A stretch of DNA of 40,962 nt from an uncultured Clostridia bacterium (GCA_946411545.1 CAMKEK010000001.1:1-40962), one strand, 5' to 3'; positions 843-19,353 are shown, counted from the stretch's first letter. Numbers and translations are program-made. Notes: generated by a model from the sequence alone, not told the origin.

Positions 843-1943
843 TCAAGTCGGATAAATCTTTTCCCCTCTGGCGGCGGCCTCCAGGATCCGCTTCTTCAGC
901 GCCTGGTATTCCTCCCGCGTCTGCCGCGGGCTCTGCAGCTGGGTCACACTGCCGCCCTGGGCCCTGCCCGTCTCATTGGGTCTAGCCTGGCCGGAGGCGA
1001 TGCTGGCCGCCACCCGCTCCTGGATGGCCCTGGCCATAGCCTCGTTCTCCGCCCGCCGGATCTCGTCCCGGTGCAGGGTATAATAGGCGTCCTTGACGCT
1101 CATGCCGATCTGTGGGCTGGTCCAGCGCCGGAAGGTCTCGTTCTGCAGCTCCCGCCGCAGGTCGAAGCCCGGGATGCTCTGCTGCAGCTCCGCTGCCTGC
1201 TGCACCAGCTTCTGGATATGGGCGCGGGTCTGGCGTTCCTCCAGATCCTGCTGCTCCCTGGCCTTCGTTTCCCTCTGGAAGCGCTCCAGCTCGTCCATCT
1301 TCCGGGCGGTGGCCACGTCGGTGCCCAGCTCCTCCGCCCGCTTTTCATACAGCGCGTCATCCTCCTGGATGGCCTTGCCCAGCGCCTCATAGTTGAGGCT
1401 GCCGTCAGCATTGGCCTCCACGCCGTAGTTGCGGCTCAGCACGGACAGCGGGCCCTTCAGTCCGTCCAGGATCCCGCTCACCTTTTTCAGACTCGCGTCC
1501 TGCTCGGCAAGCCGTCCCCGGACGATCTCCTGCATTTCCTGGTTCAGGGCCGGGTTCTGGGCCAGCAGCTCCCGCAGGCTCTGGGTTTTGCCGCCCTCCT
1601 GCGCCGCATCTGTCCCGCTCCCCTGCGCCTTGCCTTCCCCTGCAGGGGCCGGTGCCTTCAGCTGCCCGCCGGCGGGCGTGGTGTCCTTCCCGCGCATCCG
1701 CTGCCGGTATTTCTCGGCCTTGTCCGCCGGCACGCCCAGGCTCTCCAGGCTCTGCCCTGCGTCCTCGGCGGCCTTGCCTTCCCCTTGTGCGTTTGAGGTG
1801 TTCCCCACCCCAGCGGGCGCGCTGTCTTCCGCGCTCTGTTTCCCTGCTCCTTCGCCGCCTGCTGCCGCGCCCTCGCCTCCGCCGGAAGCTGCGCCTTCTC
1901 CCGCGAAGAACTGGATCGGCAGCCACATCTTTACCTTGCTCAT
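843..1943 (-). CDS. head scaffolding protein (coiled-coil, Gly/Ala-rich N-terminal part) with L27-like LPIQFFA N-terminal motif
   Basis: AAGGAG 7 nt upstream of the ATG; MSKVKMWLPIQFFAGEG...; long charged helical segments; position immediately upstream of the capsid gene. Confidence 0.7.
   Translation of the reverse strand: MSKVKMWLPIQFFAGEGAASGGGEGAAAGGEGAGKQSAEDSAPAGVGNTSNAQGEGKAAEDAGQSLESLGVPADKAEKYRQRMRGKDTTPAGGQLKAPAPAGEGKAQGSGTDAAQEGGKTQSLRELLAQNPALNQEMQEIVRGRLAEQDASLKKVSGILDGLKGPLSVLSRNYGVEANADGSLNYEALGKAIQEDDALYEKRAEELGTDVATARKMDELERFQRETKAREQQDLEERQTRAHIQKLVQQAAELQQSIPGFDLRRELQNETFRRWTSPQIGMSVKDAYYTLHRDEIRRAENEAMARAIQERVAASIASGQARPNETGRAQGGSVTQLQSPRQTREEYQALKKRILEAAARGEKIYPT
1642..1668 (-). 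repeat. degenerate family-1 hairpin element inside the scaffold gene
   Basis: GCAGGGGCCGGTGCCTTCAGCTGCCCG; same outline as the GTAGGGGCC elements but the stem has 2 mismatches; translates as APAPAGEG. Confidence 0.35.
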
Positions 1944-2018
1944 AAAATCTCCTTTTGTGACGTCCCTGTTTTGGCCGTTTGCAACCGGCCGGGCGGGCGA
2001 ACTCCCGTTTCACGCCTC

Positions 2019-2055
2019 CAGTTTACCGTCTCCGTGTCCCGTTTCTCTAGGCCGC
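2019..2055 (-). promoter_or_regulatory. 37-nt conserved box, copy 1 (identical to 17969..18005), upstream of scaffold/capsid genes; candidate late promoter or regulator target
   Basis: cagtttaccgtctccgtgtcccgtttctctaggccgc is 37/37 identical to the copy upstream of terS. In the minus sense it directly follows a terminator and T-run. Confidence 0.6.
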
Positions 2056-2088
2056 AAAAAAGCGGACTGCGAAAAAATCGCAGCCCGC
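2056..2088 (-). terminator. intrinsic terminator (minus sense) after the giant gene region
   Basis: Minus strand AGCGGGCTGCGA-TTTTT-TCGCAGTCCGCT followed by T6. Confidence 0.65.
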
Positions 2089-2121
2089 TCTCGATTTGTG
2101 TTTCTCCCCCTTGGGATCTCC

Positions 2122-2145
2122 GTAGGGGCGGATATCATCCGCCCG
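2122..2145 (-). repeat. family-1 hairpin element, variant stem (GTAGGGGCGGATATCATCCGCCCG), intergenic
   Basis: Same GTAGGGGC head; perfect stem GGGCGGAT/ATCCGCCC. Confidence 0.8.
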
Positions 2146-2159
2146 CCTTCGTCTAAACC

Positions 2160-2186
2160 GTAGGGGCCGACGCCCTCGGCGGCCCG
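2160..2186 (-). repeat. family-1 hairpin element, subtype A, intergenic
   Basis: GTAGGGGCCGACGCCCTCGGCGGCCCG; 27/27 identical to the copies at 7787 and 21817. Confidence 0.9.
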
Positions 2187-2202
2187 TCGTCTCCCCCGTC
2201 TC

Positions 2203-2233
2203 CTGAAAACTGAAATCTGAAATCTGAAAACTA
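2203..2233. repeat. heptad repeat (CTGAAAA/CTGAAAT x4) abutting the stop codon of the giant gene
   Basis: ctgaaaactgaaatctgaaatctgaaaacta; TGA at 2204, 2211, 2218 and 2225 covers all three plus-strand frames. Confidence 0.85.
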
Positions 2234-5200
2234 TTTCCGGTGCCACGGTGCCTTGCCGATGGTGCTCTGTGCATATCCCTTGGCGTAGTACAGCGCGTCC
2301 TTCTGGGCGTTGCTCAGCGGCATGGAGTCGATGAAGGCCAGCACCTTGTCCCGCTTGGATCCGTCGATGGTCTTCCCGTTTTCGTCCACGTCCGCCTTCA
2401 GGTCCTTGGTGCCCATGTAGCAGCTGTACCAGGTCTTCACGTCGATGCCCGCCGGCGCCGTCTCGTCCCGGTATTTCACATAGTTGCTCATCTGCGGGAA
2501 GGCCTCGGCATACTCCTCGTTGTCGTACAGGAACTCCCAGTAATCCACCTTGTTCCCGGCCGTCTCTTTGTCAAGTCCCCCATAGGTCACCAGCAGCTCC
2601 ACCGCCCGCTTCCGGTCGATGCCGCCCTCGTTCACCTCGGTCTTGATCTTGTCAAAGGCGATCCCGGTCACCACATAGCAGGTCCACTCCTGCACCGTCG
2701 CCCTGGCCTCGTCCTTGTCCATGGCGCAGTATTTCTCCAGCATTCCCGCGGCCTGCTCCTTGGAAAGCTTGGCCCCGCTCATGCCGTTGCCCTGATACTG
2801 GTCCTTGATGGCGCCGCGCACCTGGCTCCTGGCGTTCTTCTCGGTATAGCCCGCCGCCGTCAGCGCCTGCATGGCCTCCCGATAGGCAGCCTCGTCGTTG
2901 GCCAGGGCCGCCTCCTTCAGCTCCTTGTATGCCCCGCCGTTGCGCCACTCGAAGATCGTCCGGGACGCCTCCGCCTCCGTGTGGGCGATGCCCTTCTCCA
3001 GCAGCAGCTTCTTGGTCTGCTCCTCGTCCAGGAAGCCGTCCGCGAAGGCGTACTGCAGCTCCCGCTCCTCGCCCGCGTCATAGGTCTTGGCCTTCTGCCA
3101 CCCGGCCGCCGGCGCGATCAGGGTGTTGTACAGGCTGGTCACCTCCCGGGCCGCCGGTGCGATGCCGATGCCGGCGAACTGGTCCAGCATCTGCAGGGTC
3201 TTGAAGATCTTGCCCCACAGCGTCATGTTGCCGTACCAGGTGGCCTCGGTGGCCTTCTCCAGGCTGCCGTTGGCAAGCTTCACGGTCTCCTTCCAGATCC
3301 GGAACACCTCGTAAACCTTCTTCACGCTGCCCAGCACCATCAGATCCTTGTCCTCGCCCCGCAGCATGTTCACCACGTCTCCGATCACCGGCACCAGCTG
3401 TGTGGGATCCAGGTTGCCCCCGAAGTTCTTCCTGGCCGCCTCCCACCATTTCTGCAGGAAGCTCCTGTAGTCGTCGTCATCCCGGAAGGCGTCCGCGATG
3501 GCGGCGAACATGGCCGTGGCCGCGGCGGTGGCGGTGTAGACTGCGGCGGCCTTCGCCGCCTTGCGCCCGGCGGCGCGCAGGGCGTTCCGGTTCCCGCTGC
3601 GCTTGGCCAGGCTCGCCTCGCTGGCCACGTCCAGCAGCATGTTATAGGTCAGCGTTGGCTCCGCCTTGAACGCGGTAAACTCCGCCATCATCATGCTCTT
3701 GCTGCGCATGTTCTGGCTGCGGCAGATGGTGCCGTCCATCACCTGGGTGGAGAGGATCACCTCGTCAAAGCGCTCCGCCGTGGCCCGCATCAGCTCCTCG
3801 CCCCGCAGCTTGGTCTTCTCCCGCTGCTCGATCTCGCAGGCGTTCCACAGCGCGCCCCAGGTGGCCTGGTCGCCCCACTCGGCAAGCTTCGTGCCCTTGT
3901 CCGTCAGCCAGCTCCGCCGGTCCACGTCGTGCTTGATCTGCCGCCGGATGCCCGGGTTGATGTTGGTGTCGAAATAGCCCAGATCTTTCCACACTGCAAG
4001 CCCGGAATACTTCAGCGCCTTCTCCCGGCCGCCCTTCATGGCCGCGCCTCTGGCCAGATACTGCGCGTCGATCACCATGGACGCCCGCATGATGGAGGTG
4101 GGCTGCTGCAGCGCCACCCGCAGGTTGAAGCTGATGGCCGCCACCTTGGCCCGGCTCATCAGGTCCTTCAGGGTCTCCTCGCCCCGGCCGCCCTCGTTGT
4201 TGCCGTTCAGGTCCTGCAGGAAGGTGATGAAGTAGCTGCCCGCCTCCTTGCCGTAAACCCGCTCCAGCGTCTTCTGCACGCTCTCGGTGGTATACTGGCC
4301 GTCCTCGCTGCTCTCGCTGATATCCCGGTAGTTGTACCAGCGCATGGCGTCCACCAGCGGCAGGCCCAGGGCGTTGTACTTGGCCATGTCCGCCATGTGG
4401 TTTGCGAAGGTATCGAAGATGCTGTCCAGCACGATGGCGTTGTTGGCGTTTCTCACTGTGTTCTTGGTAAAGCCCATGGTCACCAGCCTGTACAGGTTCG
4501 CCCGGTCCGCGTCCGGGCTTCTGGCGTCCCGGCTTCGGCTGTCGGTCTTGATGGGGTAATAGTTCTCCTCCGTGAAGGAACGGATGCCCCACCGGGCCAT
4601 GGAGATCTCGTTGCCCCAGTCGCTGCCCTGGGTGTTCATGTACTTCTGCAGCGCGTCGGCCACTTCCTTCTGCCGCTCCGTCAGGCTGTCCACCATCTCG
4701 GCCACCGTCTCCAGATCCAGCAGATAGTTCTCGCTCTGCACCACCTCGCTGCGTCCCTGTCGGTAATTGGCCACCCGGATGCCGGCGCCCAGCAGGTGCC
4801 CCCGGGCCTGCTCCCTCTTCATCAGGCAGTAAAGGCCCATCAGCTGCGCCGTGGTCACCGTCACGGTCTCCGTCTCCCGGGTCTCGCCGCCGTCGTTTTC
4901 CTCCGCCGCGATGTCCTGCAGCCTCCGCCGCAGCTCAAAGCTGTGCACCTCCTTCTCCCAGGCCTGCACCTCCTGGCTGCTGTATGCCTTCTCCGCATAC
5001 TCGATCACCTGCTGCATGTTCATGGCCATCTTGCCCCAGCCCCGGCGCAGCTCCCGGAAGATCTGCTGTCCGCCGCTGCCGAAGCGCTTGAAGGCATAGA
5101 AGGGTGTGGCGTTGTCCCAGGCCAGGATCCGCCGCAGCTTGTCCCCTCTGGTGCTGCTTCTGCCCTGAACCTTCTCCAGGTCCCGGATGCTGCCGCTTGC

Positions 5201-8200
5201 GGCCTCTGCCACGCTCCTGCCGTTCTCGTCCGCCAGCAGGGTGTCCGCCTTGCGGATCGCCTCGCTGAAGGCCGTCAGGATCTCCTCCAGGCTCTGCAGC
5301 TGCTCCAGGTCCATCTGGTAGATGCTCCAGGCCTCGCCCTTCCTGGCCCGCTCCACAAAGGGCTGGATCATCTCGTCCATGAACGGCAGCAGGTCAAGCT
5401 GCACCCCGCTGGCAGGCAGCTCACCCCGCTCCTGCGCCAGCGCCGCCTTGGCCAGAATGTTCTGCAGCTCCTGCATCTGCTGGATGTACTGTTTCCGGTA
5501 CTTCTCCTGCGCCCTCGGGCTCAGCGCGTCGATGCTCAGAAGGAACTCGCTCAGCGCCTGTTTCCATACCTCCGGCACATGCTTCTTGCTGCTGTTCTCC
5601 TGCAGGATTTTGGCAAGCCGCTCCCGGGCCTTGGCCACCCGGACCCGCGCCCGGTACTCCTGCTCCCGCTGGACGGACCGCTGCCGCAGCTCATAGGCCT
5701 TTTCCCTGGCCAGCTGATTGCGCAGCCGCTTCTCCTCCCGCAGCCGCTCCTGCAGGTCGTCCCGCCGGGCCCGCTCCCACTTCATCTGGTCCTCCGCGTC
5801 GTTCAGCTGCTGCTGCCGCGCCCGGTCCTTTGCCGCGTACTTCTGCTCCAGTCTCTCCATGGCTCTCTGGTAGTTCCGGTCCGCCATGGTCTCCTTCACG
5901 CCAACCTCGCCGCTCAGCAGCCGGTCGATGATCTCGTTGCCCAGCTCCTCCGAAGCGTCCCGCAGCCGGTAGCCCTCAAACATCCGGAAGTCCTGGGGCT
6001 CCAGACTCTGCAGCACGCCCAGCACCTCATACAGCTGGTCGCTGGGTGCCATCGCGTCCTCCGGGAACAGTTCCTCCCCGAAGGTGCCCCGCAGATCCTG
6101 ATACAGCTGGTCCATGCTCATGCCGTCCCGGCTGAAAGACAGCGTGCCGAAGTTCCGCTTCCGGAAGTCGGCAAAGTCCGGGATGTCGCTGCCGAACTGC
6201 TCGGTGCCGATGCGGTGGTTCCTCAGATACTCCCGCAGATCCCGCCGCAGCTCCGCCCGCTCGTCCTCGGTATACCAGCTGTTCTCCAGAATGTGCCGGG
6301 CAAGCGTCACCGCCTGCCGCCTCAGCTCGTTGAAGAAGCCCACGCCGCCGCCCTGCTGGTTCTGCACCATGAAGTCGCCCAGCGCCTGCAGCTGCGCCGC
6401 GATCTCCGCCGCATCCGCCTGACTGTCCGTCTGCTTCAGCAGCGCCTTGGCCATCCGCCGCACGTCCTCCGGCAGCAGCGTCGCCTGCCCCGGCTCCGTC
6501 CGCCTGGCCTCCCGCCGGTAGTATTCCACATACTCCTGCAGCGCCTTGTTCTCCTCCCGCAGCGCACGCATGTTCCGGGCGGCCTGCTCCGGGTTTGCCT
6601 CCCGCCAGGCGGCAAGGGCTCTCTCCGCCGTCCGCTTCAGCGCCGGCGTCTGCTCCGCCTTCTTCAGCGCCTTCTCCGCCCGCTCGATCTGAGCCTCCAG
6701 CTTCTCAATCTCCCCCCGCAGCTTCTCGGCCTGCGCCTTTGCCTCCTCCGTGTAGGGGCCGACGCTCTCGGCGGCCGGCTCCCCGGTCTCGGCAGCCAGC
6801 CCATTCTCCAATTCCGAATTCTCCCGCTCCAGTGCCTCCAGCGCCGCTCTCCTGCGCTCCAGCTTCTCCTGGGCCCGCTCCATGCTCCGCACCTTCCGGG
6901 CGTACTCCTGCACGTCCAGGCCGGCTCTGGGCGTCTCAGCGGCCTCCATCAAAAGCTCCCGATCCGTCGGCGCCGCATCCCGCTCCTGATATAGCGTCCC
7001 GTCATCCCTCTCTGTGTAGGTAAACAGTTTGCTTTCGTCACTCTGACTGGTGTACAGCAATCCGCCCTCAGCTCGTGGAATGTTCTTGACAGCACTATAA
7101 AGCTGTGATACATTGTAACTGTCACCTGAAGGACTCCGGGTACTCCCGCTTGCGGGGTTGAAACCTTGTCCGAGGGTGACATTTTCTATATCACGAAAAG
7201 CGTAGGACCGCGCGCTTCCGTCAGCGTTCTGGACAATGGTTCCCACCATAGCGCGTATTTCTGTGACCTGCTCGCCGTCCCTGGTTGTAGTGTACTTATA
7301 GAGGTTATAAAGCCGATAGCCATATAGTGCTTTATACTTGTTGTCGGTATGAACCCGTTCCACATTCAGCAGGATGCTGTTTTTGAATATCTCCTTTAGA
7401 TGTGGAATTATATCCAGCGTTGCCTGGTAGTCAAAATCAGGGTCTGTATTCAACCGATTGGCAATGCTTTCCGATACGATGTCTTCGTTAAGATAAGCGG
7501 TTATATCAAGCTGTTGAATGTCCACCGTTGTTCTTTTCCCGTAAGCTTTTCGGAATGCTGCCCTCCCTGCTGCATAGAGACTTCTACGTCCACGCACCAC
7601 ACTTCTGGCGTGTACAGGCTCCAGGACAAGCGGCGTGATATCGTTCCGCATGGTCTGCTCAAAATTTGCAGAAAGCGGAAAATGGTCTCCCAGCCTCCGG
7701 CTCAGATCGTCCAAGCCTAATTTCGCATACCGTTCCCTGATTGGGTTATAAATCTCCCGCTCCTCCAGCTGCGTCTCGTCCCCTTCGTAGGGGCCGACGC
7801 CCTCGGCGGCCCGCTCATTGCCTTCCCCTTGAGGGGAAGGTGCCCGAAGGGCGGATGAGGTGTCCCCCGCCGCAGCGGAAGACGTGCTGCTCTCCGCATT
7901 CCGAACTCCGGACTCCGCATTGGCCCCGTTCCTGGCCGCCGCCACGAAGGCCCGATCCCAGATGTCCTGCAGCTCGTCCAGATATCCCTCCATGGCCTTG
8001 GCCTCTTCGTGGAATGCCTCCACGCCCTCGAAGGCGTCGGCGATCCGCGCCGCCCAGCGCCGCAGCCAGCGGCGGATGCTGTTGAACAGGCCCGGATTAT
8101 CCTGCGCCAGGCTCTCCGCCACCGTGGTCCGCCGCAGCATCATCTCGCAGCCGTCGCACACCACCTCGTCTATGGCCGCGTCATAGCTCAGCTTCCCCGT

Positions 8201-11200
8201 GGTGTCCCTGTCCAGCTTCGCCAGCACCAGCTCGCCCAGGCTCTTCCCCTGATACTCGCTCAGATGCGTCAGCAGAAAGTCCGTCAGCTCCCGGTACTGG
8301 GCTGCGCCCTGATCCTGGATGAAGTGGGTCAGCTCGTGGGCAGCCGTCCGGATGATGGCCACCTGGCTCAGACTCCGGCTGCTGTAGGCCCCGGCGTTCA
8401 CATCCAGGAAGATGCCCTCCCCGCTGCGATAGCCGCCGTTGGCCCCCTGGAACCGGCCCTTGCTGTCCTTGCGGCTCTGGTAGAAGTGTACGTTCACCCC
8501 GCTGATCTCCGCCAGCATGGTCACCGCCTTGATCTGCTTCTTCTGTCGCCGCGTCAGCTTCGACTGGTCCACCGCGTCATACCGCACGCCGTTCATCACA
8601 GCCCCGTCATAGCTCACCGTGCCCTTGGCTCTGGGCCCCCGCGTTCCTGTCGCCGCAGCGACAGATGAGGCTCCCGCCGCAGTGGTGCCCACTCCCACGG
8701 TAACGCCCGCCGCCTCCACCGAGGCGGCGTTTTTTTGCGCCGTCTGGGCAACTTCCGCCCCCGTCTGTACGGTCTCCCCCGTGTAGGGGCCGGCGCCCTC
8801 GACGATCCGCCCGCTCTCCGGCGCCGAATTCTGAATTCCGGCCTCCGCATTGGCCGCGCTCCGTCCCTGCTCCACCGCAAGGCGCAGCTGATCCTCCGTC
8901 AGGCTCTCCAGCAGGATCGGGCTCCGCTCTATGATCTGCTCCACCGTAAGGCTGGTGCGCTTGCCGTAAAGCTTTTCCGCCTGCTCCCAGGCCGCGGCAT
9001 AGGCCTCGATGTTCTGCCCGCTCTCATAGGCCGTAAAGGCCAGCGGCGCGCTCTCGCCCAGCCGCTCCCGCAGCGTGTTGCCAAGCTTCCGCACCGCCTC
9101 CGGCAGCCGCTCGTCCTCCGCGTCCAGCACCTGGGTGCCCGTCTCTGTGTGCACCTCCACGCTGCCGTCTGCCCGCATGACGCCGATGCTGCCCGCCTGG
9201 CCTTCCTCCAGCGTCACGCTCTCGTTCTTGTCCGCCGCCGTCACGTCCTCGGTTGCGGTGTCCTCCGTCTCCCCGGCTGTGGCATTGTCCGCCGTTCCGG
9301 TTCCCGCGTCGGTGACCATCCGGCTCTCCCCGGCATACAGACCGTCGCCCAGACGCACGGTGCCCATGTTCTCGGCCCAGGCGCTGCTGTGGGTTTCGTT
9401 CAGGATGTTGTCCGGGCTCATCTCCTCCAGCACCCGCCGGCCGTACTTGCTCTCGCCCAGGATGCGCTGCCCGTCAGGCCCCAGCAGCTTCCCGCTCTTG
9501 AAGTCCTCGACGGCCTTGTCCGCCGCCCGGTCGCTGGTGGCCTCCCGGATCCGGTTCCACATCTCCTGCGCCGCGTTGGTGATCAGCCTGGCCAGGTTCC
9601 CGGCATTCTCTCCCTCGCCAAGCTCCGTCAGCCGCTCCTCCACCGCCGCGTTCATGGTCTCCTGGTCCGCCTCGGTGATGGCCGCGTCCAGCTTTGCCGC
9701 GCCGAAGCCCCGCAGCGCCTTCCCGCTGTTCTGATACCCCTGCGCCATCTGATAGGCCGCGCTGTCCTCCGGCAGCATCGCCGCCTCGTTGAAAAGGGTC
9801 TCCGCCGTCTCGCTGTCCACGGTGCTCACGCCCTGGACCGCCTGCTGCCCGCCGGCGCCGAAGATGCCGCCCACGGCCTCGCTCACGAAGTCCCAGGCCA
9901 TGTCCTCCATGGTCTCCTTGGAAGCTTGCTGTTCCGCCTGCTCCGGGCTCATGGTCACGCTGTACTCCGTCACCTTCTGGTTGTATTCGCTCTGCCGTCC
10001 GTTGACCCACTCGTCCGCGGCAAAGCCCATGAAGGAGCTGAACAGGCCCTCCGCGCCCTCGAACATGCCCTGAATCCCCGTGTTCTTCAGGAACTCCCCG
10101 ATGTTCTTCGGCGCGCCGGTCTTCAGCAGGTGATCCAGCGGCAGATACTCGCTCCCGGTCTCCGCCGCCCAGCAGAAGGCGGCATACAGCAGCGCCTGGC
10201 CATAGTCGCCCGTCCGGGCCAGTGCCTCGTCATAGCCGCTCTCTGCCGCGCCGCCGCCCATCATGATGGCCGTCATCGCCGCGCCCAGCACATGGCCCCA
10301 GCCCAGGCTCTGCAGCGTGCTGTTGCCGATCTGGTAAAGGTCGCCCAGACCCCGGTCCTTGCCGAAGAAGCGGATGGTGCCCAGGTCGTTCAATGCCTCG
10401 GCGGATCCGCCCGCGATGGCGTTGGCCGCCTCAAAGCCGTTGGCGTAATCCCGCTCCGTGACGTAGCCCTTCTCCGCGTACTCCGCGGCGTCCAGCAGGA
10501 AGTATACCCCCGCGATGGGCATGCCCAGCACGCTTGCGATGCTGCCCGCAGCGCCGCCCCAGGCGCTGGTGTTGCCCCAGTCCTGATACTCCTGCAGCTC
10601 TGCGTTCTTCTTCTGGTGGGCAATGGAATTGTTCACACTGCGGGCAAAGGCAAAGGCCTTCTCCTTGGCGTCCTCTCCCTCCTGTCCGTACAGATAGCCG
10701 AAGATCTCCTGCTGCTCCTGGGTCCACTCCTCCGTCGGCCCGTTCTCGTCATAGTCCAGCCGGTTCCGTTCGTAGAAGCTGCTTGCGTCCTCTCTGTTCG
10801 CCGCCTCCGACCACGACTCCTCCATCCAGCCCTCAACCTTCTCCTGCCGGTCCATCAGATCCTGGCTGTAGGCGTTCATGCCCGCTGTGGCCGCCGCCGC
10901 AAACTCCGTGTCCTCCGGATCCGTCGCCCGCACATACAGGTCGCTGTACCGCTGGGCCCCGGAGAACTGCTCATACAGATACGCCCGGGTATAGTCCTCC
11001 TGGGCTGCCGCCGCCTCCTCACGCACCGGCGCCGCCGCAGCATCCCGGTTCTCCTGAGCCGCCTGATACTCCTGCCACTGCTCTGCCGTGATCAGGCCAA
11101 ACTCCTGCGCCTTCTCCCAGCCGTGCTCGGTCAGGCGGCCTTCCTCGTCCGTCAGCTCCGTATCGTCCCAGAACAGATCGGTCAGCGTATCGGCGATTGC

Positions 11201-12046
11201 CTTCTCCTCCGCGTTCAGGCCCTGCTCCCAAACCGTGGCGATCTTGTCCGCCCTGGAGTCCTCCAGCGCCTTCTCCGCCGCCTGCTGCCGCTCATAGGCC
11301 GCGTCCGCCGCTGCCGCGTTCTGCTCCGCCCATTCCTCCATGCTCATGCCGCCCACCCGGGCGTTGGCCATGTCCAGGGAATAGTCCTGATAGGCCTCCC
11401 AGGCCTCCTTGCTTCCGAAGTCCTCGATGCCCTGCAGAACGTAGTCCAGTCCGCCCCGTCCGGCATCCGTGCCGAAGGGTCCCGGCATGCTGCCCCAGCC
11501 TTCCTCCGCCGGCCGGTAAAAGCCCGGCAGCACCGGCGCCGCCGTCTGCGTCCCGCCGGCTGTCACACCCTCAATGTCTTCCCCTGTAGGGGATGGCGTC
11601 CTCGACGTCCCGTCGCCGGGCAGGCTGCTCTCCCCCCAGCTCCATTCGTCCTCCTCGTCCTCGTCCTTCTTCCTCGCTGTGGTGTCCACGGCCCCCACGC
11701 CAAGGCCCATGGCCGCAAGCCGCGCCGTATAATCGCTGAACCAGTCCTTCCGCGTCCCGCCCGTCTCCGGGTTCTGCCCCGCAAGGCCGCTCAGCGTTCC
11801 GAAGTCCAGCCCCGTCACATACCGTCCGCTGTAGTCATTCCCCACCACCCGCGGCCCCGTCTGCCGGGAAGTATTCGATCTGTTCCCGGTAATGTTGCCC
11901 ATGATGATTTCAAACGCGCTTCTCGGTTCCTCGCTCTGGCTCCCGCCGTTTGAGGCCCCATAGGTTTTCTCGCTGCTGGAACCGCTGGAGCTGCTGGAAC
12001 TCCCGCCCCCGTTGATGTTGTTCATGATCCGCTCAAATTTGCTCAT
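2231..12046 (-). CDS. giant multi-domain virion protein (~3270 aa), polyvalent-protein-like, with an HExxH metallopeptidase module, hydrophobic segments and a long coiled coil
   Basis: Single uninterrupted ORF. I prefer the ATG at 12046 (GGAAGGAGACGGGC upstream) over the ORF-track ATG at 12064. HELTH lies at 8324..8338. The gene occupies the slot after the portal where MuF/gp7-type minor head proteins usually sit. Confidence 0.8.
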   Translation of the reverse strand: MSKFERIMNNINGGGSSSSSSGSSSEKTYGASNGGSQSEEPRSAFEIIMGNITGNRSNTSRQTGPRVVGNDYSGRYVTGLDFGTLSGLAGQNPETGGTRKDWFSDYTARLAAMGLGVGAVDTTARKKDEDEEDEWSWGESSLPGDGTSRTPSPTGEDIEGVTAGGTQTAAPVLPGFYRPAEEGWGSMPGPFGTDAGRGGLDYVLQGIEDFGSKEAWEAYQDYSLDMANARVGGMSMEEWAEQNAAAADAAYERQQAAEKALEDSRADKIATVWEQGLNAEEKAIADTLTDLFWDDTELTDEEGRLTEHGWEKAQEFGLITAEQWQEYQAAQENRDAAAAPVREEAAAAQEDYTRAYLYEQFSGAQRYSDLYVRATDPEDTEFAAAATAGMNAYSQDLMDRQEKVEGWMEESWSEAANREDASSFYERNRLDYDENGPTEEWTQEQQEIFGYLYGQEGEDAKEKAFAFARSVNNSIAHQKKNAELQEYQDWGNTSAWGGAAGSIASVLGMPIAGVYFLLDAAEYAEKGYVTERDYANGFEAANAIAGGSAEALNDLGTIRFFGKDRGLGDLYQIGNSTLQSLGWGHVLGAAMTAIMMGGGAAESGYDEALARTGDYGQALLYAAFCWAAETGSEYLPLDHLLKTGAPKNIGEFLKNTGIQGMFEGAEGLFSSFMGFAADEWVNGRQSEYNQKVTEYSVTMSPEQAEQQASKETMEDMAWDFVSEAVGGIFGAGGQQAVQGVSTVDSETAETLFNEAAMLPEDSAAYQMAQGYQNSGKALRGFGAAKLDAAITEADQETMNAAVEERLTELGEGENAGNLARLITNAAQEMWNRIREATSDRAADKAVEDFKSGKLLGPDGQRILGESKYGRRVLEEMSPDNILNETHSSAWAENMGTVRLGDGLYAGESRMVTDAGTGTADNATAGETEDTATEDVTAADKNESVTLEEGQAGSIGVMRADGSVEVHTETGTQVLDAEDERLPEAVRKLGNTLRERLGESAPLAFTAYESGQNIEAYAAAWEQAEKLYGKRTSLTVEQIIERSPILLESLTEDQLRLAVEQGRSAANAEAGIQNSAPESGRIVEGAGPYTGETVQTGAEVAQTAQKNAASVEAAGVTVGVGTTAAGASSVAAATGTRGPRAKGTVSYDGAVMNGVRYDAVDQSKLTRRQKKQIKAVTMLAEISGVNVHFYQSRKDSKGRFQGANGGYRSGEGIFLDVNAGAYSSRSLSQVAIIRTAAHELTHFIQDQGAAQYRELTDFLLTHLSEYQGKSLGELVLAKLDRDTTGKLSYDAAIDEVVCDGCEMMLRRTTVAESLAQDNPGLFNSIRRWLRRWAARIADAFEGVEAFHEEAKAMEGYLDELQDIWDRAFVAAARNGANAESGVRNAESSTSSAAAGDTSSALRAPSPQGEGNERAAEGVGPYEGDETQLEEREIYNPIRERYAKLGLDDLSRRLGDHFPLSANFEQTMRNDITPLVLEPVHARSVVRGRRSLYAAGRAAFRKAYGKRTTVDIQQLDITAYLNEDIVSESIANRLNTDPDFDYQATLDIIPHLKEIFKNSILLNVERVHTDNKYKALYGYRLYNLYKYTTTRDGEQVTEIRAMVGTIVQNADGSARSYAFRDIENVTLGQGFNPASGSTRSPSGDSYNVSQLYSAVKNIPRAEGGLLYTSQSDESKLFTYTERDDGTLYQERDAAPTDRELLMEAAETPRAGLDVQEYARKVRSMERAQEKLERRRAALEALERENSELENGLAAETGEPAAESVGPYTEEAKAQAEKLRGEIEKLEAQIERAEKALKKAEQTPALKRTAERALAAWREANPEQAARNMRALREENKALQEYVEYYRREARRTEPGQATLLPEDVRRMAKALLKQTDSQADAAEIAAQLQALGDFMVQNQQGGGVGFFNELRRQAVTLARHILENSWYTEDERAELRRDLREYLRNHRIGTEQFGSDIPDFADFRKRNFGTLSFSRDGMSMDQLYQDLRGTFGEELFPEDAMAPSDQLYEVLGVLQSLEPQDFRMFEGYRLRDASEELGNEIIDRLLSGEVGVKETMADRNYQRAMERLEQKYAAKDRARQQQLNDAEDQMKWERARRDDLQERLREEKRLRNQLAREKAYELRQRSVQREQEYRARVRVAKARERLAKILQENSSKKHVPEVWKQALSEFLLSIDALSPRAQEKYRKQYIQQMQELQNILAKAALAQERGELPASGVQLDLLPFMDEMIQPFVERARKGEAWSIYQMDLEQLQSLEEILTAFSEAIRKADTLLADENGRSVAEAASGSIRDLEKVQGRSSTRGDKLRRILAWDNATPFYAFKRFGSGGQQIFRELRRGWGKMAMNMQQVIEYAEKAYSSQEVQAWEKEVHSFELRRRLQDIAAEENDGGETRETETVTVTTAQLMGLYCLMKREQARGHLLGAGIRVANYRQGRSEVVQSENYLLDLETVAEMVDSLTERQKEVADALQKYMNTQGSDWGNEISMARWGIRSFTEENYYPIKTDSRSRDARSPDADRANLYRLVTMGFTKNTVRNANNAIVLDSIFDTFANHMADMAKYNALGLPLVDAMRWYNYRDISESSEDGQYTTESVQKTLERVYGKEAGSYFITFLQDLNGNNEGGRGEETLKDLMSRAKVAAISFNLRVALQQPTSIMRASMVIDAQYLARGAAMKGGREKALKYSGLAVWKDLGYFDTNINPGIRRQIKHDVDRRSWLTDKGTKLAEWGDQATWGALWNACEIEQREKTKLRGEELMRATAERFDEVILSTQVMDGTICRSQNMRSKSMMMAEFTAFKAEPTLTYNMLLDVASEASLAKRSGNRNALRAAGRKAAKAAAVYTATAAATAMFAAIADAFRDDDDYRSFLQKWWEAARKNFGGNLDPTQLVPVIGDVVNMLRGEDKDLMVLGSVKKVYEVFRIWKETVKLANGSLEKATEATWYGNMTLWGKIFKTLQMLDQFAGIGIAPAAREVTSLYNTLIAPAAGWQKAKTYDAGEERELQYAFADGFLDEEQTKKLLLEKGIAHTEAEASRTIFEWRNGGAYKELKEAALANDEAAYREAMQALTAAGYTEKNARSQVRGAIKDQYQGNGMSGAKLSKEQAAGMLEKYCAMDKDEARATVQEWTCYVVTGIAFDKIKTEVNEGGIDRKRAVELLVTYGGLDKETAGNKVDYWEFLYDNEEYAEAFPQMSNYVKYRDETAPAGIDVKTWYSCYMGTKDLKADVDENGKTIDGSKRDKVLAFIDSMPLSNAQKDALYYAKGYAQSTIGKAPWHRK
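6752..6778 (-). repeat. family-1 hairpin element in frame in the giant gene (PAAESVGPY)
   Basis: GTAGGGGCCGACGCTCTCGGCGGCCGG. Confidence 0.85.
7787..7813 (-). repeat. family-1 hairpin element in frame in the giant gene (RAAEGVGPY)
   Basis: GTAGGGGCCGACGCCCTCGGCGGCCCG. Confidence 0.9.
7825..7868 (-). repeat. family-2 element (GGGGAAGGTG-hairpin-GGATGAGG) in frame in the giant gene (APSPQGEG)
   Basis: ccccttgaggggaaggtgcccgaagggcggatgaggtgtccccc; related to 18351..18390 and 25784..25828. Confidence 0.6.
8783..8809 (-). repeat. family-1 hairpin element in frame in the giant gene (GRIVEGAGPY)
   Basis: GTAGGGGCCGGCGCCCTCGACGATCCG. Confidence 0.8.
11586..11612 (-). repeat. family-1 hairpin element, diverged, in frame in the giant gene (GTSRTPSPT)
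   Basis: GTAGGGGATGGCGTCCTCGACGTCCCG. Confidence 0.7.
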
Positions 12047-12109
12047 GCCCGTCTCCTTCCGCATTGTCCCGATATGCCGCAGGGGCGGGGTCTTGCCCCG
12101 CCCGCTTTC

Positions 12110-13294
12110 TTACTTTGCCTTTTCTTTTTGATAGGCTTCCTCTGTTTTCGGCCCCCAAACGCCGTCCAGCTTGATGTTATAGCCTTTATCGATTAGAGCC
12201 TGCTGAGCTGCCAGCACTTCGGAACGCCTCAACCCAGCTCCGCTCAACTTCGGATACGTCTCATACCCGTTGTCCGCTGCCCCGCCGCCGGCCGCGGCGG
12301 CCTGCTGGGCGGCCCGCAGGCTGTCGTAATACTTCTTCATGGCGTTGTACTGGGCCCGGGTCAGTCCCGCCGCCTGGATCTCGTCCTCCGTGGCGGAATA
12401 GCCGATCTGGATCAGGCCGTTGAGCTTGTTCAGCGCGTCCTGCTGCCGCTGATACTCCCGCTCCTCCAGGCTGTCGGCATAGCTGCGCTCGGTCAGGAAA
12501 CGGTTGTAGTCGTCCACATAGCGGTTGTAGTCGGTGCTGTCCTTGTCCAGCAGCATCTGATACTCCCGCAGCAGCCGGTCCCCCTGGTCCTGATACTGCT
12601 GGTATGCCCGGTCGTACAGCTCCGGCACCCGCTCGTTCAGCTGCTGCAGGTACGCGTCGTACTGCTGCTGCCCCACCGCCTGGCCGTAGGTGCTTCCGTA
12701 GCCGCCGGTGAGGGAGGAGGCCTGCCCCATGCTGTCCCGCATGGCCATGCGCCCCTGATTGACGTACTGGTCCCGGTACTGCTGATACAGCGCGTCCGCA
12801 TCCAGGTCATAGGTGAAGTTGCCACGGCCCGTGATTTGGTTGTAAATCTCGTTGATCTGGTCGTCATAGCGGCCCACATAGCTGGGCGGATTCAGTCCCG
12901 CCTCGTTCAGCGCCGCCATGGTCCGCTCATAGATGCCCCTTGTGGCGGCCTCCTGATCCTCAAGGGACGGCACCTCGGCCAGCTGTCGGCTCACCGTGGT
13001 CTGCCCGCTGCTGCCCGTCCCCGGGATCTCGATCTCCATGGGCATCGGCTCCCCGCTGATGGTTCCGCCGTGTCCCGCAGGCCGCGTGGCCGCCGGTGCA
13101 GGCTCCGTGGGCGGTGCTGCGGGCGGCGTCTTCGGCGGCGCCGGCTCCGTCGGGGCCGACGGTACCACGTCCGAGGGGATATAGGTTCCCGGTGCCGGTG
13201 CGCCCGGATCATACCCGGCCTGCGCGTCGATTGTTGCCGGGTCGATTACGGCCGGCTTTCTGCCGCCCAGGCCCGTGTCTTTCTCAAATGCCAT
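12110..13294 (-). CDS. Pro-rich / Tyr-Gln-rich protein with C-terminal peptidoglycan-binding (PG_binding_1-like) domain; probable virion or ejection-associated protein
   Basis: C-terminus reads LAAQQALIDKGYNIKLDGVWGPKTEEAYQ; located between the Prp-like gene and the giant gene. Confidence 0.6.
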   Translation of the reverse strand: MAFEKDTGLGGRKPAVIDPATIDAQAGYDPGAPAPGTYIPSDVVPSAPTEPAPPKTPPAAPPTEPAPAATRPAGHGGTISGEPMPMEIEIPGTGSSGQTTVSRQLAEVPSLEDQEAATRGIYERTMAALNEAGLNPPSYVGRYDDQINEIYNQITGRGNFTYDLDADALYQQYRDQYVNQGRMAMRDSMGQASSLTGGYGSTYGQAVGQQQYDAYLQQLNERVPELYDRAYQQYQDQGDRLLREYQMLLDKDSTDYNRYVDDYNRFLTERSYADSLEEREYQRQQDALNKLNGLIQIGYSATEDEIQAAGLTRAQYNAMKKYYDSLRAAQQAAAAGGGAADNGYETYPKLSGAGLRRSEVLAAQQALIDKGYNIKLDGVWGPKTEEAYQKEKAK

Positions 13295-13658
13295 CGCTCA
13301 ATCCTCCAATCTCCACCCGGACATGCTCCGGGTACTGCTCCGCCAGCGCCAGCCAGCCCTCCGTCACCGTCCATATCATGCTCCGGCAGGCCCGCATCCG
13401 ATCCATTTCACCGGCAAGGCTCTCCGGCGCTCCCGCCTCCAGCATTCTCTGCGCCGTCGCCATCTCCGGAAAACAGATCTCCACCTCTGCCTCCGTGCCG
13501 ATCCGCACCCGGCCGTCAAACTCTCCCGCTCTGGCAAGCATGGCGTTGGTCAGCGCGGTGATCCCCGCGCACACCAGGTCCTGTCCCTTCTCGCCTGCGC
13601 CCGCGTGTCCCTGCAGCCGGATTCGCATCCTGCCCATGTCAACCCGTATCGTCGTCAT
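13284..13658 (-). CDS. prp: Prp-like cysteine protease (ribosomal-processing protease family, DUF464-like)
   Basis: LQGHAGAGEKGQDLVCAGITALTNAM matches the His...Cys signature GHA...G.D.VCA..S.L of Prp; about 124 aa; sits in the head module. Confidence 0.7.
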   Translation of the reverse strand: MTTIRVDMGRMRIRLQGHAGAGEKGQDLVCAGITALTNAMLARAGEFDGRVRIGTEAEVEICFPEMATAQRMLEAGAPESLAGEMDRMRACRSMIWTVTEGWLALAEQYPEHVRVEIGGLSDGI

Positions 13659-13670
13659 TCAGATCCCCTC

Positions 13671-15887
13671 TCAGTCCGGCTGGCTGGCCCGCGCCGCCCG
13701 CTCCCGGGCCTTGCGCACATGGGTGGCCTCTCCCGCGTTTCCGGTGGCGGCGGCCTCCTGCGTGGGCATCGCCGCCTGCCCGGAGCTGGGGAACGCGCCT
13801 CCCGCCATGGCAGCGCCTCCCGTGATTGCCTGGGCAAGCCCCGGCACCAGGTCCGGCCGGTACTGCTGGGCCAGCGTCAGCGCCATCTGCTGGAACTGCA
13901 CCAGCTTCTGATACATGTCCGCGTTCATCGCGATCCGCTGCGCCACCTTGTCCTTGCCTTCAAACTCCATCATGTCCAGCACCGCCATGGCCATGTCCCC
14001 GTTCTGGGGGCTGAAGAAGCCCGCTCCGTATAGCTGCATGGCCAGCTCGTTCTGGGCAAGCTTGGTGTAGGGGTTGCGCTTCTGGGGCTCGATCTTGATA
14101 TCGAACACCGGCAGCCGGAACCCCATGTCCACGCTGCCCATCATGCCCTGCCACTGGGGCTGCAGTCCCTGGTTGGAGTACCGGGTAAACTCATCGCTGC
14201 CGTCGCGCCCCGTGATGCGGAAGGTGCGCGGCATGTCATAGAACTGCCTCACCAGCTCGATCACCTGATCCACCAGCTCCGCGAAGGCCCGATAGCTGGC
14301 CTTGGCGCTGTCCCGGCTTCCCTTGCCGCTGGCTTCCTGCAGCGCCGCGATGGCGGAGGCCGCCGTGGCCCCGCTGGTGGAGATGCCGTTGGCCGTCTCC
14401 GTGTTGCCTGTGGTCTCCCGCAGCTCGCTGATGGTCTGCTCCAGGACGTTGATGTAGTTGCCGTGCAGGCTGTTCACCTCCACCCGGCGCAGGCTGTCCT
14501 CGCCCAGGTTGCCGCTGACGTGCACCAGCGCCTTGTGCAGGTCCAGAAACTCCTCCTCGTTCACCGCGCCGTCGCTGCGGGCGAAGTAACGCGGTGTGGC
14601 CCCGGCCATGGTGTTCTTGATGAAGGCGGTCTTCATCAGGTCCACCTGGGTCTGCTCGTTGGCCGCCAGATCCACGAAGCCATAGCCGCAGGGGCTCCCC
14701 TCCACAGGGAACAGCACGTCAAACACAAAGGGATACTTCCCGTGCTCGTAAAGTCCCCGGCTGGAATTGGTCGCACGGAATCCGGAATTCGGAAGCGCAG
14801 GCACAGCGCCCGGCATACCCGGCGCACCCACACCCGGTCCCGCTCCCATGCCCGGCACAGCGCCTGCAGGGGCCGGCGTCCTCGGCGGCCCGCCCTCTGG
14901 TTCCCGCAGCCCGGCGGCGCCTGGTATGCCTCCCATGCCCGGCACAGCGCCTGTAGGGGCCGGCGTCCTCGACGGCCCGCCCCCGGTATCCCCCAACCCG
15001 GCAGCGCCCATGCCCGGTCCTTCTCCGTAGGGGCCGACGCCCCCGGCGGCCCGTCCTCCCGGCACAGCGCCCGGCATCCTCGTGTCCTGTCCGGTCTGCT
15101 CCGTGGCGTACAGCACCACATCCCCCACGAACTGGCAGTAATGCAGCACCCGTCTGCCGCCCTCGAAGCGGTGGTAGTAGTGGTTGATCACCGTGAACTG
15201 GTTGTCCGTGGGCACCTGATCGTCATACAGGAACTTGGTGGCCTGGAAGGCGTCCGGCTTCAGCCGCCCCCGCAGCTGGGGATACTGCTCGATCAGCGTG
15301 TCCCCGTCCTCCAGGTAGGTGTAGAACAGGTGCCGGCTGTCCTGGATGTCCGCCACGCCCGGCTCCCAGAACAGGTTCAGAAGGTTCACGGTCTGGATGC
15401 TGATGTCCCCCAGCCCGTTCAGCTTTGACTTGTCCCAGGTGATCATGTATACGCCCGTGCCGGTCTTCAGCTTCTGCCACATGGCCCGGTCATAGGTGTG
15501 TTCAAAGCGGTTCTGCTCCAGGATGCAGGGGATCACGGCTGACAGCATCCTGGCCTCCTGCTGGTCTCCCTTCTCTCTGGGCAGGATGTTGGGCTCCGGA
15601 TAGGCCTCCATGGCGTCCGCGTGCTTGGAGGCGATCACGTTGTGCAGCCACCCGCTCTTGGCGTTGAACTCCGCCGGGTCCAGCTCGCTGACCTTGGCCT
15701 CCTCCATCTCGTTGCGCAGCTTCCACCAGTTTTCCGCGTTCTGCACCCGGCGCTCCAGCCGCGCCTTGCCGGTCTTGTACTTCTGCAGAATCCGCATCCA
15801 GTCCCGCAGGGTCTCCTTGGTGATGGGGCCCTTCCGGTCCTCCTCCGCACGCCATCCCGGCGCCTGCTCGTTGATAATCTGATCCAT
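13671..15887 (-). CDS. portal protein carrying a ~100-aa Gly/Pro/Ala-rich insertion
   Basis: Immediately downstream of terL; size; ATG at 15887 preceded by GAGGAGGAG (MDQIINEQ...). The ORF-track start at 15905 is less likely. Confidence 0.8.
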   Translation of the reverse strand: MDQIINEQAPGWRAEEDRKGPITKETLRDWMRILQKYKTGKARLERRVQNAENWWKLRNEMEEAKVSELDPAEFNAKSGWLHNVIASKHADAMEAYPEPNILPREKGDQQEARMLSAVIPCILEQNRFEHTYDRAMWQKLKTGTGVYMITWDKSKLNGLGDISIQTVNLLNLFWEPGVADIQDSRHLFYTYLEDGDTLIEQYPQLRGRLKPDAFQATKFLYDDQVPTDNQFTVINHYYHRFEGGRRVLHYCQFVGDVVLYATEQTGQDTRMPGAVPGGRAAGGVGPYGEGPGMGAAGLGDTGGGPSRTPAPTGAVPGMGGIPGAAGLREPEGGPPRTPAPAGAVPGMGAGPGVGAPGMPGAVPALPNSGFRATNSSRGLYEHGKYPFVFDVLFPVEGSPCGYGFVDLAANEQTQVDLMKTAFIKNTMAGATPRYFARSDGAVNEEEFLDLHKALVHVSGNLGEDSLRRVEVNSLHGNYINVLEQTISELRETTGNTETANGISTSGATAASAIAALQEASGKGSRDSAKASYRAFAELVDQVIELVRQFYDMPRTFRITGRDGSDEFTRYSNQGLQPQWQGMMGSVDMGFRLPVFDIKIEPQKRNPYTKLAQNELAMQLYGAGFFSPQNGDMAMAVLDMMEFEGKDKVAQRIAMNADMYQKLVQFQQMALTLAQQYRPDLVPGLAQAITGGAAMAGGAFPSSGQAAMPTQEAAATGNAGEATHVRKARERAARASQPD
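14866..14892 (-). repeat. family-1 hairpin element in frame in the portal gene (GPPRTPAPA)
   Basis: GCAGGGGCCGGCGTCCTCGGCGGCCCG. Confidence 0.8.
14953..14979 (-). repeat. family-1 hairpin element, subtype B, in frame in the portal gene (GPSRTPAPT)
   Basis: GTAGGGGCCGGCGTCCTCGACGGCCCG; 27/27 identical to the copy at 24348. Confidence 0.9.
15027..15053 (-). repeat. family-1 hairpin element in frame in the portal gene (RAAGGVGPY)
   Basis: GTAGGGGCCGACGCCCCCGGCGGCCCG. Confidence 0.85.
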
Positions 15888-15897
15888 AGCTCCTCCT

Positions 15898-15914
15898 CTA
15901 AGCACTAAGCACTA
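15898..15914. repeat. heptad stop repeat (CTAAGCA x2 + CTA) between terL and portal
   Basis: Minus strand TAGTGCTTAGTGCTTAG has TAG in all three frames. The first TAG is the terL stop, and the repeat runs straight into the portal RBS GAGGAGG. Confidence 0.85.
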
Positions 15915-17354: not shown

Positions 17355-17355
17355 A

Positions 17356-17952: not shown

Positions 17953-17968
17953 ATCGCCTTTTCCGTTT

Positions 17969-18005
17969 CAGTTTACCGTCTCCGTGTCCCGTTTCTCTAG
18001 GCCGC
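17969..18005 (-). promoter_or_regulatory. 37-nt conserved box, copy 2 (identical to 2019..2055), immediately upstream of terS
   Basis: 37/37 identity; preceded in the minus sense by a terminator and T6. Confidence 0.6.
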
Positions 18006-19336: not shown

Positions 19337-19353
19337 CAAACTCACGCTGCCCT

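Follow-up and report, generated by a model that had tools for sequence, protein, structure and literature searches.

Introduction

Polyvalent proteins, a concept that together with the proposed roles of their peptidases comes from Iyer et al. (2017; J Bacteriol, PMC5512222), are the closest described counterparts of the gene product considered here. For the peptidase, envelope crossing and self-cleavage with release of cargo are discussed as alternatives (PMC5512222). Phage N4 gp50 (3,500 amino acids, aa) is an encapsidated giant that carries a peptidase-type HExxH module and enters the host by ejection (PMC5512222). The giant polyvalent protein of a podovirus, phi24B gp47 (annotated vb_24B_48; 2,807 aa), is found in virions by proteomics; it is invisible in the reconstruction and has been proposed to be an encapsidated ejection protein (bioRxiv 10.64898/2026.04.10.717836). 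The subject of this paper is a giant gene on the minus strand of a phage genome from an uncultured Clostridia bacterium (GCA_946411545.1, CAMKEK010000001.1:1-40962). The whole stretch of DNA analysed, 40,962 nucleotides (nt) in length, is called the window.

We consider it likely that this gene encodes a phage-type polyvalent protein, composed of an N-terminal module (N-module), a zincin-like metallopeptidase, a variable bay, a coiled coil, a core of ~900 aa and hairpin repeats. It is probably packaged in the capsid and enters the cell together with the DNA. A preliminary description of the window had placed the protein in the polyvalent class, and this assignment is now supported through the domains of collinear relatives together with the HExxH module. 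The concept of polyvalent proteins has been known since 2017, and the family described below is already in PHROGs and BFVD.

The giant gene and its family

A single unbroken minus-strand open reading frame (ORF) extends over positions 2231..12064 and has 3,277 codons from its first ATG, as determined by ORF listing and translation. Residue numbers are counted here from the ATG at 12064, and the ATG at 12046 corresponds to Met7. The sequence GGAG is found 6 nt before this second in-frame ATG. In addition, an independent database fragment that is 98% identical, P0087, begins at Met7 (P and L numbers are our labels for related proteins and loci). Because of these two properties, the true gene is probably 2231-12046 (3,271 aa, stop codon 2231-2233). 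The window was assembled as a circle whose ends overlap by 54 nt, which gives a genome of 40,908 bp, and therefore the giant gene takes up 24% of the genome; this agrees with the uninterrupted frame of about a quarter of the genome noticed at the outset. The G+C content at third codon positions (GC3) is 0.8-0.97 over the entire ORF, except for a trough of ~0.5 at aa ~1433-1710.

The protein belongs to a family of collinear giants of 2,500-4,500 aa. Shorter globular queries gave homologues in a collection of 5.8 billion proteins. Among the N-module matches, the proteins of at least 2,500 aa are taken as the long relatives. There are 97 of these; the core is present in 92, the metallopeptidase module in 90, and all three modules in 88, so that at least 88 giants carry the three modules in the same order. 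The order N-module, peptidase, core is kept in 89/89. The interval between peptidase and core, termed here the cargo bay, has a median length of 1,269 aa (357-2,248 aa) and measures 763 aa in this protein. Fifty-nine of the 72 family-invariant columns are kept in this protein, including the H, E, H and E of the peptidase. As judged from these comparisons, the family has a strict order with one variable bay and is not a free mosaic.

The bays of relatives carry recognizable domains. When 14 giants were scanned with Pfam, MuF_C was found in 6/14, ART-PolyVal in 5/14 and a C5 DNA methylase in 2/14, with PBECR5 and LPD23 in one each. P0001 has LPD23, SprT-like and LPD3 domains, and P0080 has LPD3 and ART-PolyVal. 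The giant of L150 (3,169 aa) carries LPD23 and LPD3 and that of L144 (3,325 aa) carries PBECR3; these two share only the C-terminal half with the protein described here, with homology that starts at aa 1769-1778, and their N-terminal halves are unrelated. The C-terminal half, from aa ~1700-1770, is common to P0001, P0002 and the L150 and L144 giants. The giant protein can be divided into at least six separable homology blocks with different sets of relatives. Assignment to the polyvalent class is supported via the family, because the bays of relatives carry MuF_C, ART-PolyVal, PBECR3/5, C5 methylase, LPD3 and LPD23.

The family can be compared with the polyvalent proteins of Iyer et al. In both cases the proteins are very large, consist of multiple modules, are encoded among late virion genes and have a zincin-like HExxH hub; the relatives have MuF_C (a PBECR domain), ART-PolyVal, PBECR3/5, methylase, LPD3 and LPD23 domains, and domain content varies strongly among proteins that are otherwise orthologous. 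A difference is that this member has no Pfam-recognizable domain, and its N-module and core match no Pfam LPD family.

The order of modules can be interrupted at the gene level. In L005 (5656-13345) the protein is split into one of 1,406 aa, with the N region, peptidase, MuF_C and coiled coil, and a core protein of 1,114 aa. In L008 a gap of ~150 nt splits the giant gene at the equivalent of aa ~2414. Because of these splits, either the chassis of conserved modules undergoes fusion and fission or some assemblies carry frameshifts.

The metallopeptidase module

The zincin-like metallopeptidase (MPTase-type) module is at aa 1131-1395 (7880..8674, minus strand). The HExxH module that had been picked out by eye is indeed present as HELTH at aa 1243-1247 (window 8324-8338, minus strand), and a candidate third-ligand Glu is within DEVVCDGCEMML at aa 1299-1310. 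Fourteen divergent giant relatives have H, E, H and the downstream E without exception, and this protein retains them. The module is ~44% identical to the modules of P0077-P0083. In a profile comparison by hhalign with the module of the 1,406-aa MuF_C-containing protein of L005, the probability was 97.7% and the E-value 2e-12; the two modules are thus homologous.

Structural modelling with AlphaFold2 (AF2) shows strands followed by the HExxH helix in the metallopeptidase part, with a predicted local distance difference test score (pLDDT) of ~75, and this topology is compatible with a zincin-like MPTase. A model of the peptidase plus the adjoining low-GC cassette (aa 1131-1710) is weaker (pLDDT 58), and a Foldseek search of the PDB with it gave nothing significant. 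Matches to Pfam peptidase families are sub-threshold only. The hub feature of a zincin-like MPTase, i.e. an HExxH helix and a downstream Glu helix, is found here on the basis of the motif, the hhalign comparison and the AF2 model.

The low-GC cargo cassette

A cassette of low GC content is found at aa 1433-1710 (6935..7768, minus strand), with the motifs IPHLKEIFKNSILLNVERVHTDNK and YGYRLYNLY. Its GC3 is ~0.5 vs ~0.9 elsewhere in the ORF, and thus the low-GC module recognized in the preliminary description is confirmed and delimited. Homologues of the cassette are present in P0074, P0075 and P0076, and in the 3,044-aa giant of L153, a phage of 38% GC.

The position of the cassette within the protein is informative. 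P0077-P0083 have flanks that match aa 1131-1383 and 1690-1825, and these enclose ~200 aa. The ~200-aa inserts contain Pfam LPD3 in three cases and a sub-threshold match to it in one. Because the same flanks enclose LPD3 in three of these proteins, the alignments place the cassette in the slot where relatives carry LPD3. A direct hhalign comparison of the cassette with LPD3 segments is not significant (E 0.027, probability 1.8%), and the region involved is that of the weak Pfam hit described below. The AF2 model of the cassette is alpha+beta with a pLDDT of ~65. Foldseek matches to NTF2-like folds (E 0.16-0.5) are non-significant and were obtained with this pLDDT ~65 model, so they are to be taken as a lead only. 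We give about equal weight to the cassette being, or not being, a divergent LPD3-like alpha+beta domain.

A sharp-edged GC3 trough (~0.4-0.5 vs 0.9-0.98) is common to the phage cassette (6935-7768) and to the copies in L006 (4439-5602) and L154 (277-1515). The L006 and L154 copies are stand-alone chromosomal genes of high-GC bacteria. Synonymous sites among the three copies are saturated. The low GC3 of the cassette may reflect repeated import from low-GC donors, or an AT-richness that is maintained.

The coiled coil, helical core and C-terminal tail

The long Arg/Glu coiled coil of the preliminary description is present at aa ~1711-2100. This Arg/Glu-rich coiled-coil/helical region (aa 1711-2100; 5765..6934, minus strand) forms the conserved entry to the C-terminal half and aligns with P0001, P0002, the giants of L144, L150 and L153, and P0077-P0084.

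It is followed by a conserved helical core at aa ~2101-3000 (3065..5764, minus strand), which has the motifs TEENYYPIK, NLRVALQQPT, TQVMDxT..R and RDDDDY. The profile phrog_22978 (PHROGs v4, function unknown) matches with an E-value of 4.4e-161, and aa 1830-2983 are aligned to profile positions 2058-3152 of 3513. With aa 2290-3010 as query, 66 homologues of the core were found, many of them stand-alone proteins of 1,000-1,250 aa. The AF2 model of aa 2290-3010, based on an alignment of 48 sequences, is mostly helical, with a pLDDT of 84.2 and a predicted template modelling score (pTM) of 0.84.

The core model matched no fold in the PDB (best E 0.18). A search of BFVD with the same model gave 76 entries at E<=1e-3, the top ones with E-values of 7e-39 to 1e-27 and template modelling (TM) scores of 0.65-0.76 (0.75 for the first of them). 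The top matches are C-terminal chunks of proteins named 'MuF C-terminal domain-containing', 'Nuclease', 'PolyVal ADP-ribosyltransferase' and 'Large polyvalent protein-associated domain-containing'. Because the BFVD matches are C-terminal chunks of polyvalent-type proteins, the core is a backbone domain that occurs widely, without annotation, in phage polyvalent proteins. The ~1500-aa C-terminal part singled out in the preliminary description forms the conserved backbone of the family and is no additional effector.

The C-terminal tail, aa 3001-3277 (2234..3064, minus strand), contains three to four helical hairpin repeats, and those at aa 3012-3040, 3100-3127 and 3149-3176 were located by regular expression and manual reading. 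Helical repeats had been anticipated here with a length of ~35 aa; the repeats are present, and their length is ~29 aa. The tail is conserved in P0001, L008, L144 and L150, and relatives' tails show weak XkdX-like and SHOCT-like Pfam matches.

The size of the protein brings to mind the virion RNA polymerase of N4/crAss-type phages. It is similar in size to the N4 enzyme, and N4-type polymerases are themselves polyvalent proteins with peptidase modules (PMC5512222). N4 gp50 is comparable as a giant with an HExxH module, but no polymerase domain is found here: searches of Pfam, PHROGs and PDB sequences with the whole protein gave no RNA polymerase match, aa 1131-1710 and 2290-3010 gave no fold match, and the core is almost all helical. 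Likewise, profile searches found no single known structural family, be it tape measure or virion RNA polymerase. An assembly artefact that fused several genes would also produce a long frame; coding-type GC3 is continuous throughout, and 88 collinear giants come from independent assemblies, which excludes fusion by sequencing error. The polymerase and the artefact, taken together as one alternative, are extremely improbable.

The N-terminal parts

The N-terminal extension (aa 7-434; 10763..12046, minus strand) has the Ser/Gly-rich start described previously, followed by an acidic Trp/Tyr-rich region. The acidic W/Y-rich composition covers aa 200-500. The first description spoke of acidic Trp/Tyr-rich repeats; the composition is as stated, but self-BLAST detects no internal repeats in the N-terminal 1,100 aa. 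The extension is lineage-specific. In a search of 1.84 billion representatives, only the near-identical P0087 matched mainly inside it, and the few other matches start at about aa 230-250.

The conserved N-module, aa ~435-1075 (8840..10762, minus strand), is Gly-rich and contains EWTxEQ..FGYLY followed by GWG. At E<=1e-3 it has matches in 357 representative clusters, and the matching part is in most cases close to the N-terminus of a protein of 2,800-4,500 aa. No match to the N-module was found in Pfam or among PDB sequences. PDB sequence searches with the giant protein and with three family profiles returned designed helical proteins only (E>0.01). The core and the N-module, the two largest conserved parts, are domains without a Pfam family or a solved fold.

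Hydrophobicity peaks within the N-module, at aa 506-524 (window 10493-10549). Several membrane-like segments had been proposed and the strings quoted for them are present, but a mean Kyte-Doolittle value >=1.1 is reached solely at aa 506-524, 1118-1136 and 2839-2857. The last of these is modelled as a confident helix inside the largely helical core.

Gene order and the question of ejection

On the minus strand, the order is TerS (17356-17952), TerL (15912-17396), a portal gene of the P22/SU10 type (13671-15905), the Prp protease gene (13284-13658), a gene for a 394-aa partner protein (12110-13294) and the giant gene. A spacer of 286 nt separates the giant gene from that of a scaffold-like protein (843-1943), after which comes the capsid gene (40616..895, across the origin). 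Portal/Prp and scaffold/capsid are thus the neighbours, as was pointed out before; the 394-aa gene between Prp and the giant gene had gone unmentioned. Past the capsid gene there are two small ORFs (40213-40548 and 39870-40235) and a 584-aa member of an 'internal virion protein' PHROG, with proteins of 263 aa, 641 aa (a tail protein) and 920 aa and an endolysin encoded further on. Genes for a tape measure, tail tube, sheath or chaperone were not detected in the phage genome, and because tape measure, tube and sheath are missing the phage looks short-tailed, with a podovirus-like gene set.

These data bear on whether the giant is a tape measure protein of a long-tailed phage. Its length, its largely helical nature, its Gly-rich and hydrophobic stretches and its location near tail genes in some relatives would fit such a role, and some BFVD matches are labelled Siphoviridae or Myoviridae. 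Nevertheless, no tape measure family is matched in Pfam or PHROGs, the genome has no tube, sheath or chaperone gene, the portal is P22/SU10-like and the bay of relatives carries enzymes. By the rule of ~0.15 nm of tail per residue, 3,271 aa would imply a tail of ~490 nm. A tape measure is thus a most improbable interpretation.

The 394-aa partner has a Pro-rich N-terminus, a Q/Y/D-rich helical centre and a C-terminal domain of the peptidoglycan-binding type (PG_binding_1, E 1.6e-4, with a weak match to an endolysin PHROG). In L145-L151, L005 and L153 a homologue of it immediately precedes the giant gene; in L008 one more gene lies between the two. In all of these loci the pair of partner and giant follows a homologue of the 641-aa tail protein, and holin and lysin genes come after the giant gene in L004, L005 and L001. 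L131 is a close relative (81% capsid identity); there the scaffold and capsid genes come directly after Prp, and the 394-aa homologue is found after the tail genes. The order giant, scaffold, capsid recurs only in L140, where the neighbours observed are the downstream ones. Both in this window and in L005, L008, L140, L145-L151 and L153, the giant gene lies within a structural operon or closes it.

From this arrangement one may ask whether the main role of the giant is structural, in ejection (as part of an ejectosome). In that case a trans-envelope conduit would be formed by the N-module, coiled coil and core, the bay would be optional and the peptidase would cut peptidoglycan or host proteins rather than the giant. 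The conserved parts do constitute most of the protein and the bay here holds one small cassette; most relatives' genes follow the tail genes, with the peptidoglycan-binding partner directly upstream; the gene set is podovirus-like without a tape measure, and the same role has been proposed for phi24B gp47. The phi24B protein is also that of a short-tailed phage, has a peptidase-type module and has a gene of ~400 aa before it, although the host is Gram-negative and the LPD set consists of LPD1, 5 and 38. With the T7 gp14/15/16 and P22 gp7/16/20 proteins the giant shares the proposed role, the helical character, a cell-wall-directed partner encoded next to it and, in relatives, the post-tail position. 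P22 encodes its ejection proteins after its tail genes. The giant differs from the T7 and P22 proteins in that there is no sequence similarity to them and no PDB fold similarity in the modelled parts, and here one polypeptide with a variable bay is present rather than three. Also, the core model has no PDB fold match and just one segment is strongly hydrophobic. A mainly structural role is possible but on balance unlikely; it should be pointed out that it overlaps with a packaged polyvalent protein rather than excluding it.

Proposed mode of action and its weighing

A packaged polyvalent protein could act as follows. It would be made late, and a few copies would be built into the procapsid. 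On infection it would exit via the portal and tail with the DNA, and the peptidoglycan-binding partner and the Gly-rich, hydrophobic N-module might help it to cross the thick cell wall and membrane. The metallopeptidase may then cut the chain at flexible linkers and free the cargo, here the single cassette in the LPD3 slot, which would target host defence or physiology during the initial minutes of infection. We infer the steps of packaging, ejection and self-cleavage. A more far-reaching proposal is that the chassis is a general modular injection device of tailed phages, with an envelope-crossing N-module, a self-cleaving peptidase, a swappable bay and a capsid-docking core of novel fold, and that in this host lineage recombination re-arms the bay at in-frame linkers derived from the host repeat elements described in the next section, the cassette being a circulating effector with maintained AT-richness. 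This broader proposal is doubtful.

Several observations weigh against the reading as a packaged polyvalent protein. The whole giant protein and eight overlapping pieces of it gave no Pfam match at threshold, and the MuF, MPTase-PolyVal, LPD, PBECR and other families expected in the preliminary description were not detected at threshold in the protein itself. The sole hints, both sub-threshold, are a match of the HExxH helix to eCIS_core (E 0.15) and one of the low-GC block to LPD3 (E 0.13). The Phage_Mu_F head domain has no match at E<=10 with the whole protein or the eight overlapping segments, and none was detected in the 27 relatives or relative-linked proteins scanned with Pfam. By hydropathy, there is only one clearly hydrophobic segment. 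No recognizable Prp (QFFA-type) site is found within the giant protein. The family is known from sequence alone. Cultured GenBank phages have no BLAST-level relative by megablast and tblastn, where only unannotated faecal fragments matched; as far as tested, the family is known only from metagenomes. A profile comparison of phi24B gp47 with the N-module, peptidase module and core shows no similarity, and because of this phi24B gp47 is an analogue and not a homologue. Lastly, P0074, P0075 and P0076 are lone chromosomal genes that encode peptidase-plus-cassette fragments, and the P0001 gene is in an island where structural genes are missing.

The argument drawn originally from the MuF/minor-head slot is weak. 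The giant does resemble MuF/SPP1 gp7 in that its gene comes after the portal gene in this window and MuF_C occurs in relatives, but it has no Phage_Mu_F domain, and the position directly after the portal is not conserved: it is seen in this window only, and even here the Prp and 394-aa genes intervene. In most relatives the pair follows tail genes and precedes lysis genes. The giant protein is roughly ten times longer than the MuF/SPP1 gp7 head proteins.

The P0001 island was observed in L001 (6218-18214; a 387-kb contig of JGI 3300032007). P0001 is a protein of 2,137 aa with LPD23, SprT-like, LPD3 and core domains. Besides the giant gene, the ~12-kb island has an integrase, helix-turn-helix (HTH) repressors, a GH25 lysin and small genes. 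A prophage in decay or a satellite-like element equipped with its own polyvalent protein could account for it.

Some of these findings would suit a different explanation, namely that the giant is an unpackaged, intracellular multi-domain protein for anti-defence or superinfection exclusion, expressed late or in lysogeny and encoded in a structural operon by chance. The island with integrase, repressors and lysin and without structural genes points in this direction, as do the peptidase-plus-cassette fragments encoded by lone chromosomal genes and the lack of an identified head-anchoring domain. Because of the lone chromosomal genes, packaging is not obligatory for every relative. Against an unpackaged protein is the place of the gene, here and in the related loci named above, among structural genes or at the close of their operon, and the core was not found on plasmids. 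The polyvalent hallmarks MuF_C and ART-PolyVal have been linked to virion delivery by Iyer et al. (PMC5512222). We regard an unpackaged protein as improbable, and a packaged polyvalent protein is preferred.

REP-like elements and hairpins

A 27-nt element resembling repetitive extragenic palindromic (REP) sequences, CGGGCCGCCGAGGGCGTCGGCCCCTAC, is present in nine copies in the window vs 0 expected by motif scan, and all copies are on the coding strand. The core of the element is the 21-mer GCCGAGGGCGTCGGCCCCTAC. Copies are at 2160-2180, 6752-6772, 7787-7807, 8783-8803, 14866-14886, 14953-14973, 15027-15047, 21817-21837 and 24348-24368 (minus strand). Eight of the nine are in frame within ORFs, where they read AAEGVGPY: three are in the giant gene, three in the portal gene, one in ORF 21250-22299 and one in ORF 24293-24685.

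The three copies in the giant gene (minus strand) occupy all three junctions between N-module, peptidase, cassette and C-terminal half. Copy 1 (8783..8803; VEGAGPY, aa ~1089-1094) is at the junction of N-module and metallopeptidase, and an exact copy is present at the equivalent of this junction in the relative P0002/L008. Copy 2 (7787..7807; AEGVGPY, aa 1420-1426) is in an insertion of ~35 aa at the junction of metallopeptidase and cassette, and this insertion is missing from P0074, P0075 and P0076. Copy 3 (6752..6772; AESVGPY, aa 1765-1771) is at the start of the conserved C-terminal half and represents an insertion relative to P0001. Rickettsia palindromic elements are also found inside coding genes, and the in-frame REP elements resemble these.

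A Gly/Pro-rich insertion in the portal protein, aa ~287-346 (14860-15050), is mostly built from three REP-derived units in tandem (…GRAAGGVGPYGEGPGMGAAGLGDTGGGPSRTPAPTGAVPGMGG…). The alignments with L131 and L133 cover the sequence on either side of this insertion, and L131 has one REP copy there.

The 21-mer occurs at >119 loci in metagenome-assembled genomes of rumen Oscillospiraceae and Ruminococcaceae. Most of its copies there are intergenic; they often form inverted pairs with a spacing of ~128 nt, and some are inside IS200/RAYT-like ORFs. Because the element is multi-copy in those genomes, the host clade is likely Oscillospiraceae/Ruminococcaceae.

Two REP-type hairpin elements are in the spacer between giant and scaffold genes (2118..2196, minus strand). 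One hairpin, GGGCGGATGATATCCGCCCC, the second REP-type hairpin, is downstream of the giant gene at 2118-2144. A GC-rich hairpin, GGGCGGGGTCTTGCCCCGCCC, is just upstream of the ribosome-binding site of the giant gene (12083-12103). The REP hairpin is no more stable than shuffled controls, and Rfam gave no match in the window.

Other features of the phage genome

Consensus scans of the flanks of the giant gene revealed no terminator-like site on the coding strand; they matched just one promoter-like and one terminator-like site, both on the opposite strand.

The scaffold-like protein and the capsid protein both start with a cleavage motif of the Prp/L27 type (MWLPIQFF|AGEG and IRLPLQFF|AEAG, respectively). 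Because these motifs are at the N-termini of scaffold and capsid and Prp is encoded by the phage itself (13284-13658), the sequences imply a Prp-dependent head maturation. Prp-dependent head maturation has been described for the staphylococcal phage 80alpha.

The region 27000-34500 has a lower GC content (0.51-0.59 vs ~0.64) and spans the 920-aa protein, the endolysin and non-structural genes beyond. Its lower GC suggests a mosaic origin for this part of the genome.

Significance

The findings overturn no current ideas; they extend the polyvalent concept to an unstudied clade. In-frame REP elements at module junctions point to a way in which repeats of the host might influence how phage proteins are built from modules. 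Both the N-module and the core are well suited to structural study and to work on virion assembly, and the core has already been confidently modelled. The cassette, which has stand-alone cellular homologues, is a directly testable cargo. Host defences are believed to encounter polyvalent proteins before any other phage molecule, and almost none of these proteins have been studied. The fixed ends and the single bay of this family open the way to systematic cargo discovery across hundreds of gut and rumen Firmicutes phages that are known only from metagenomes.

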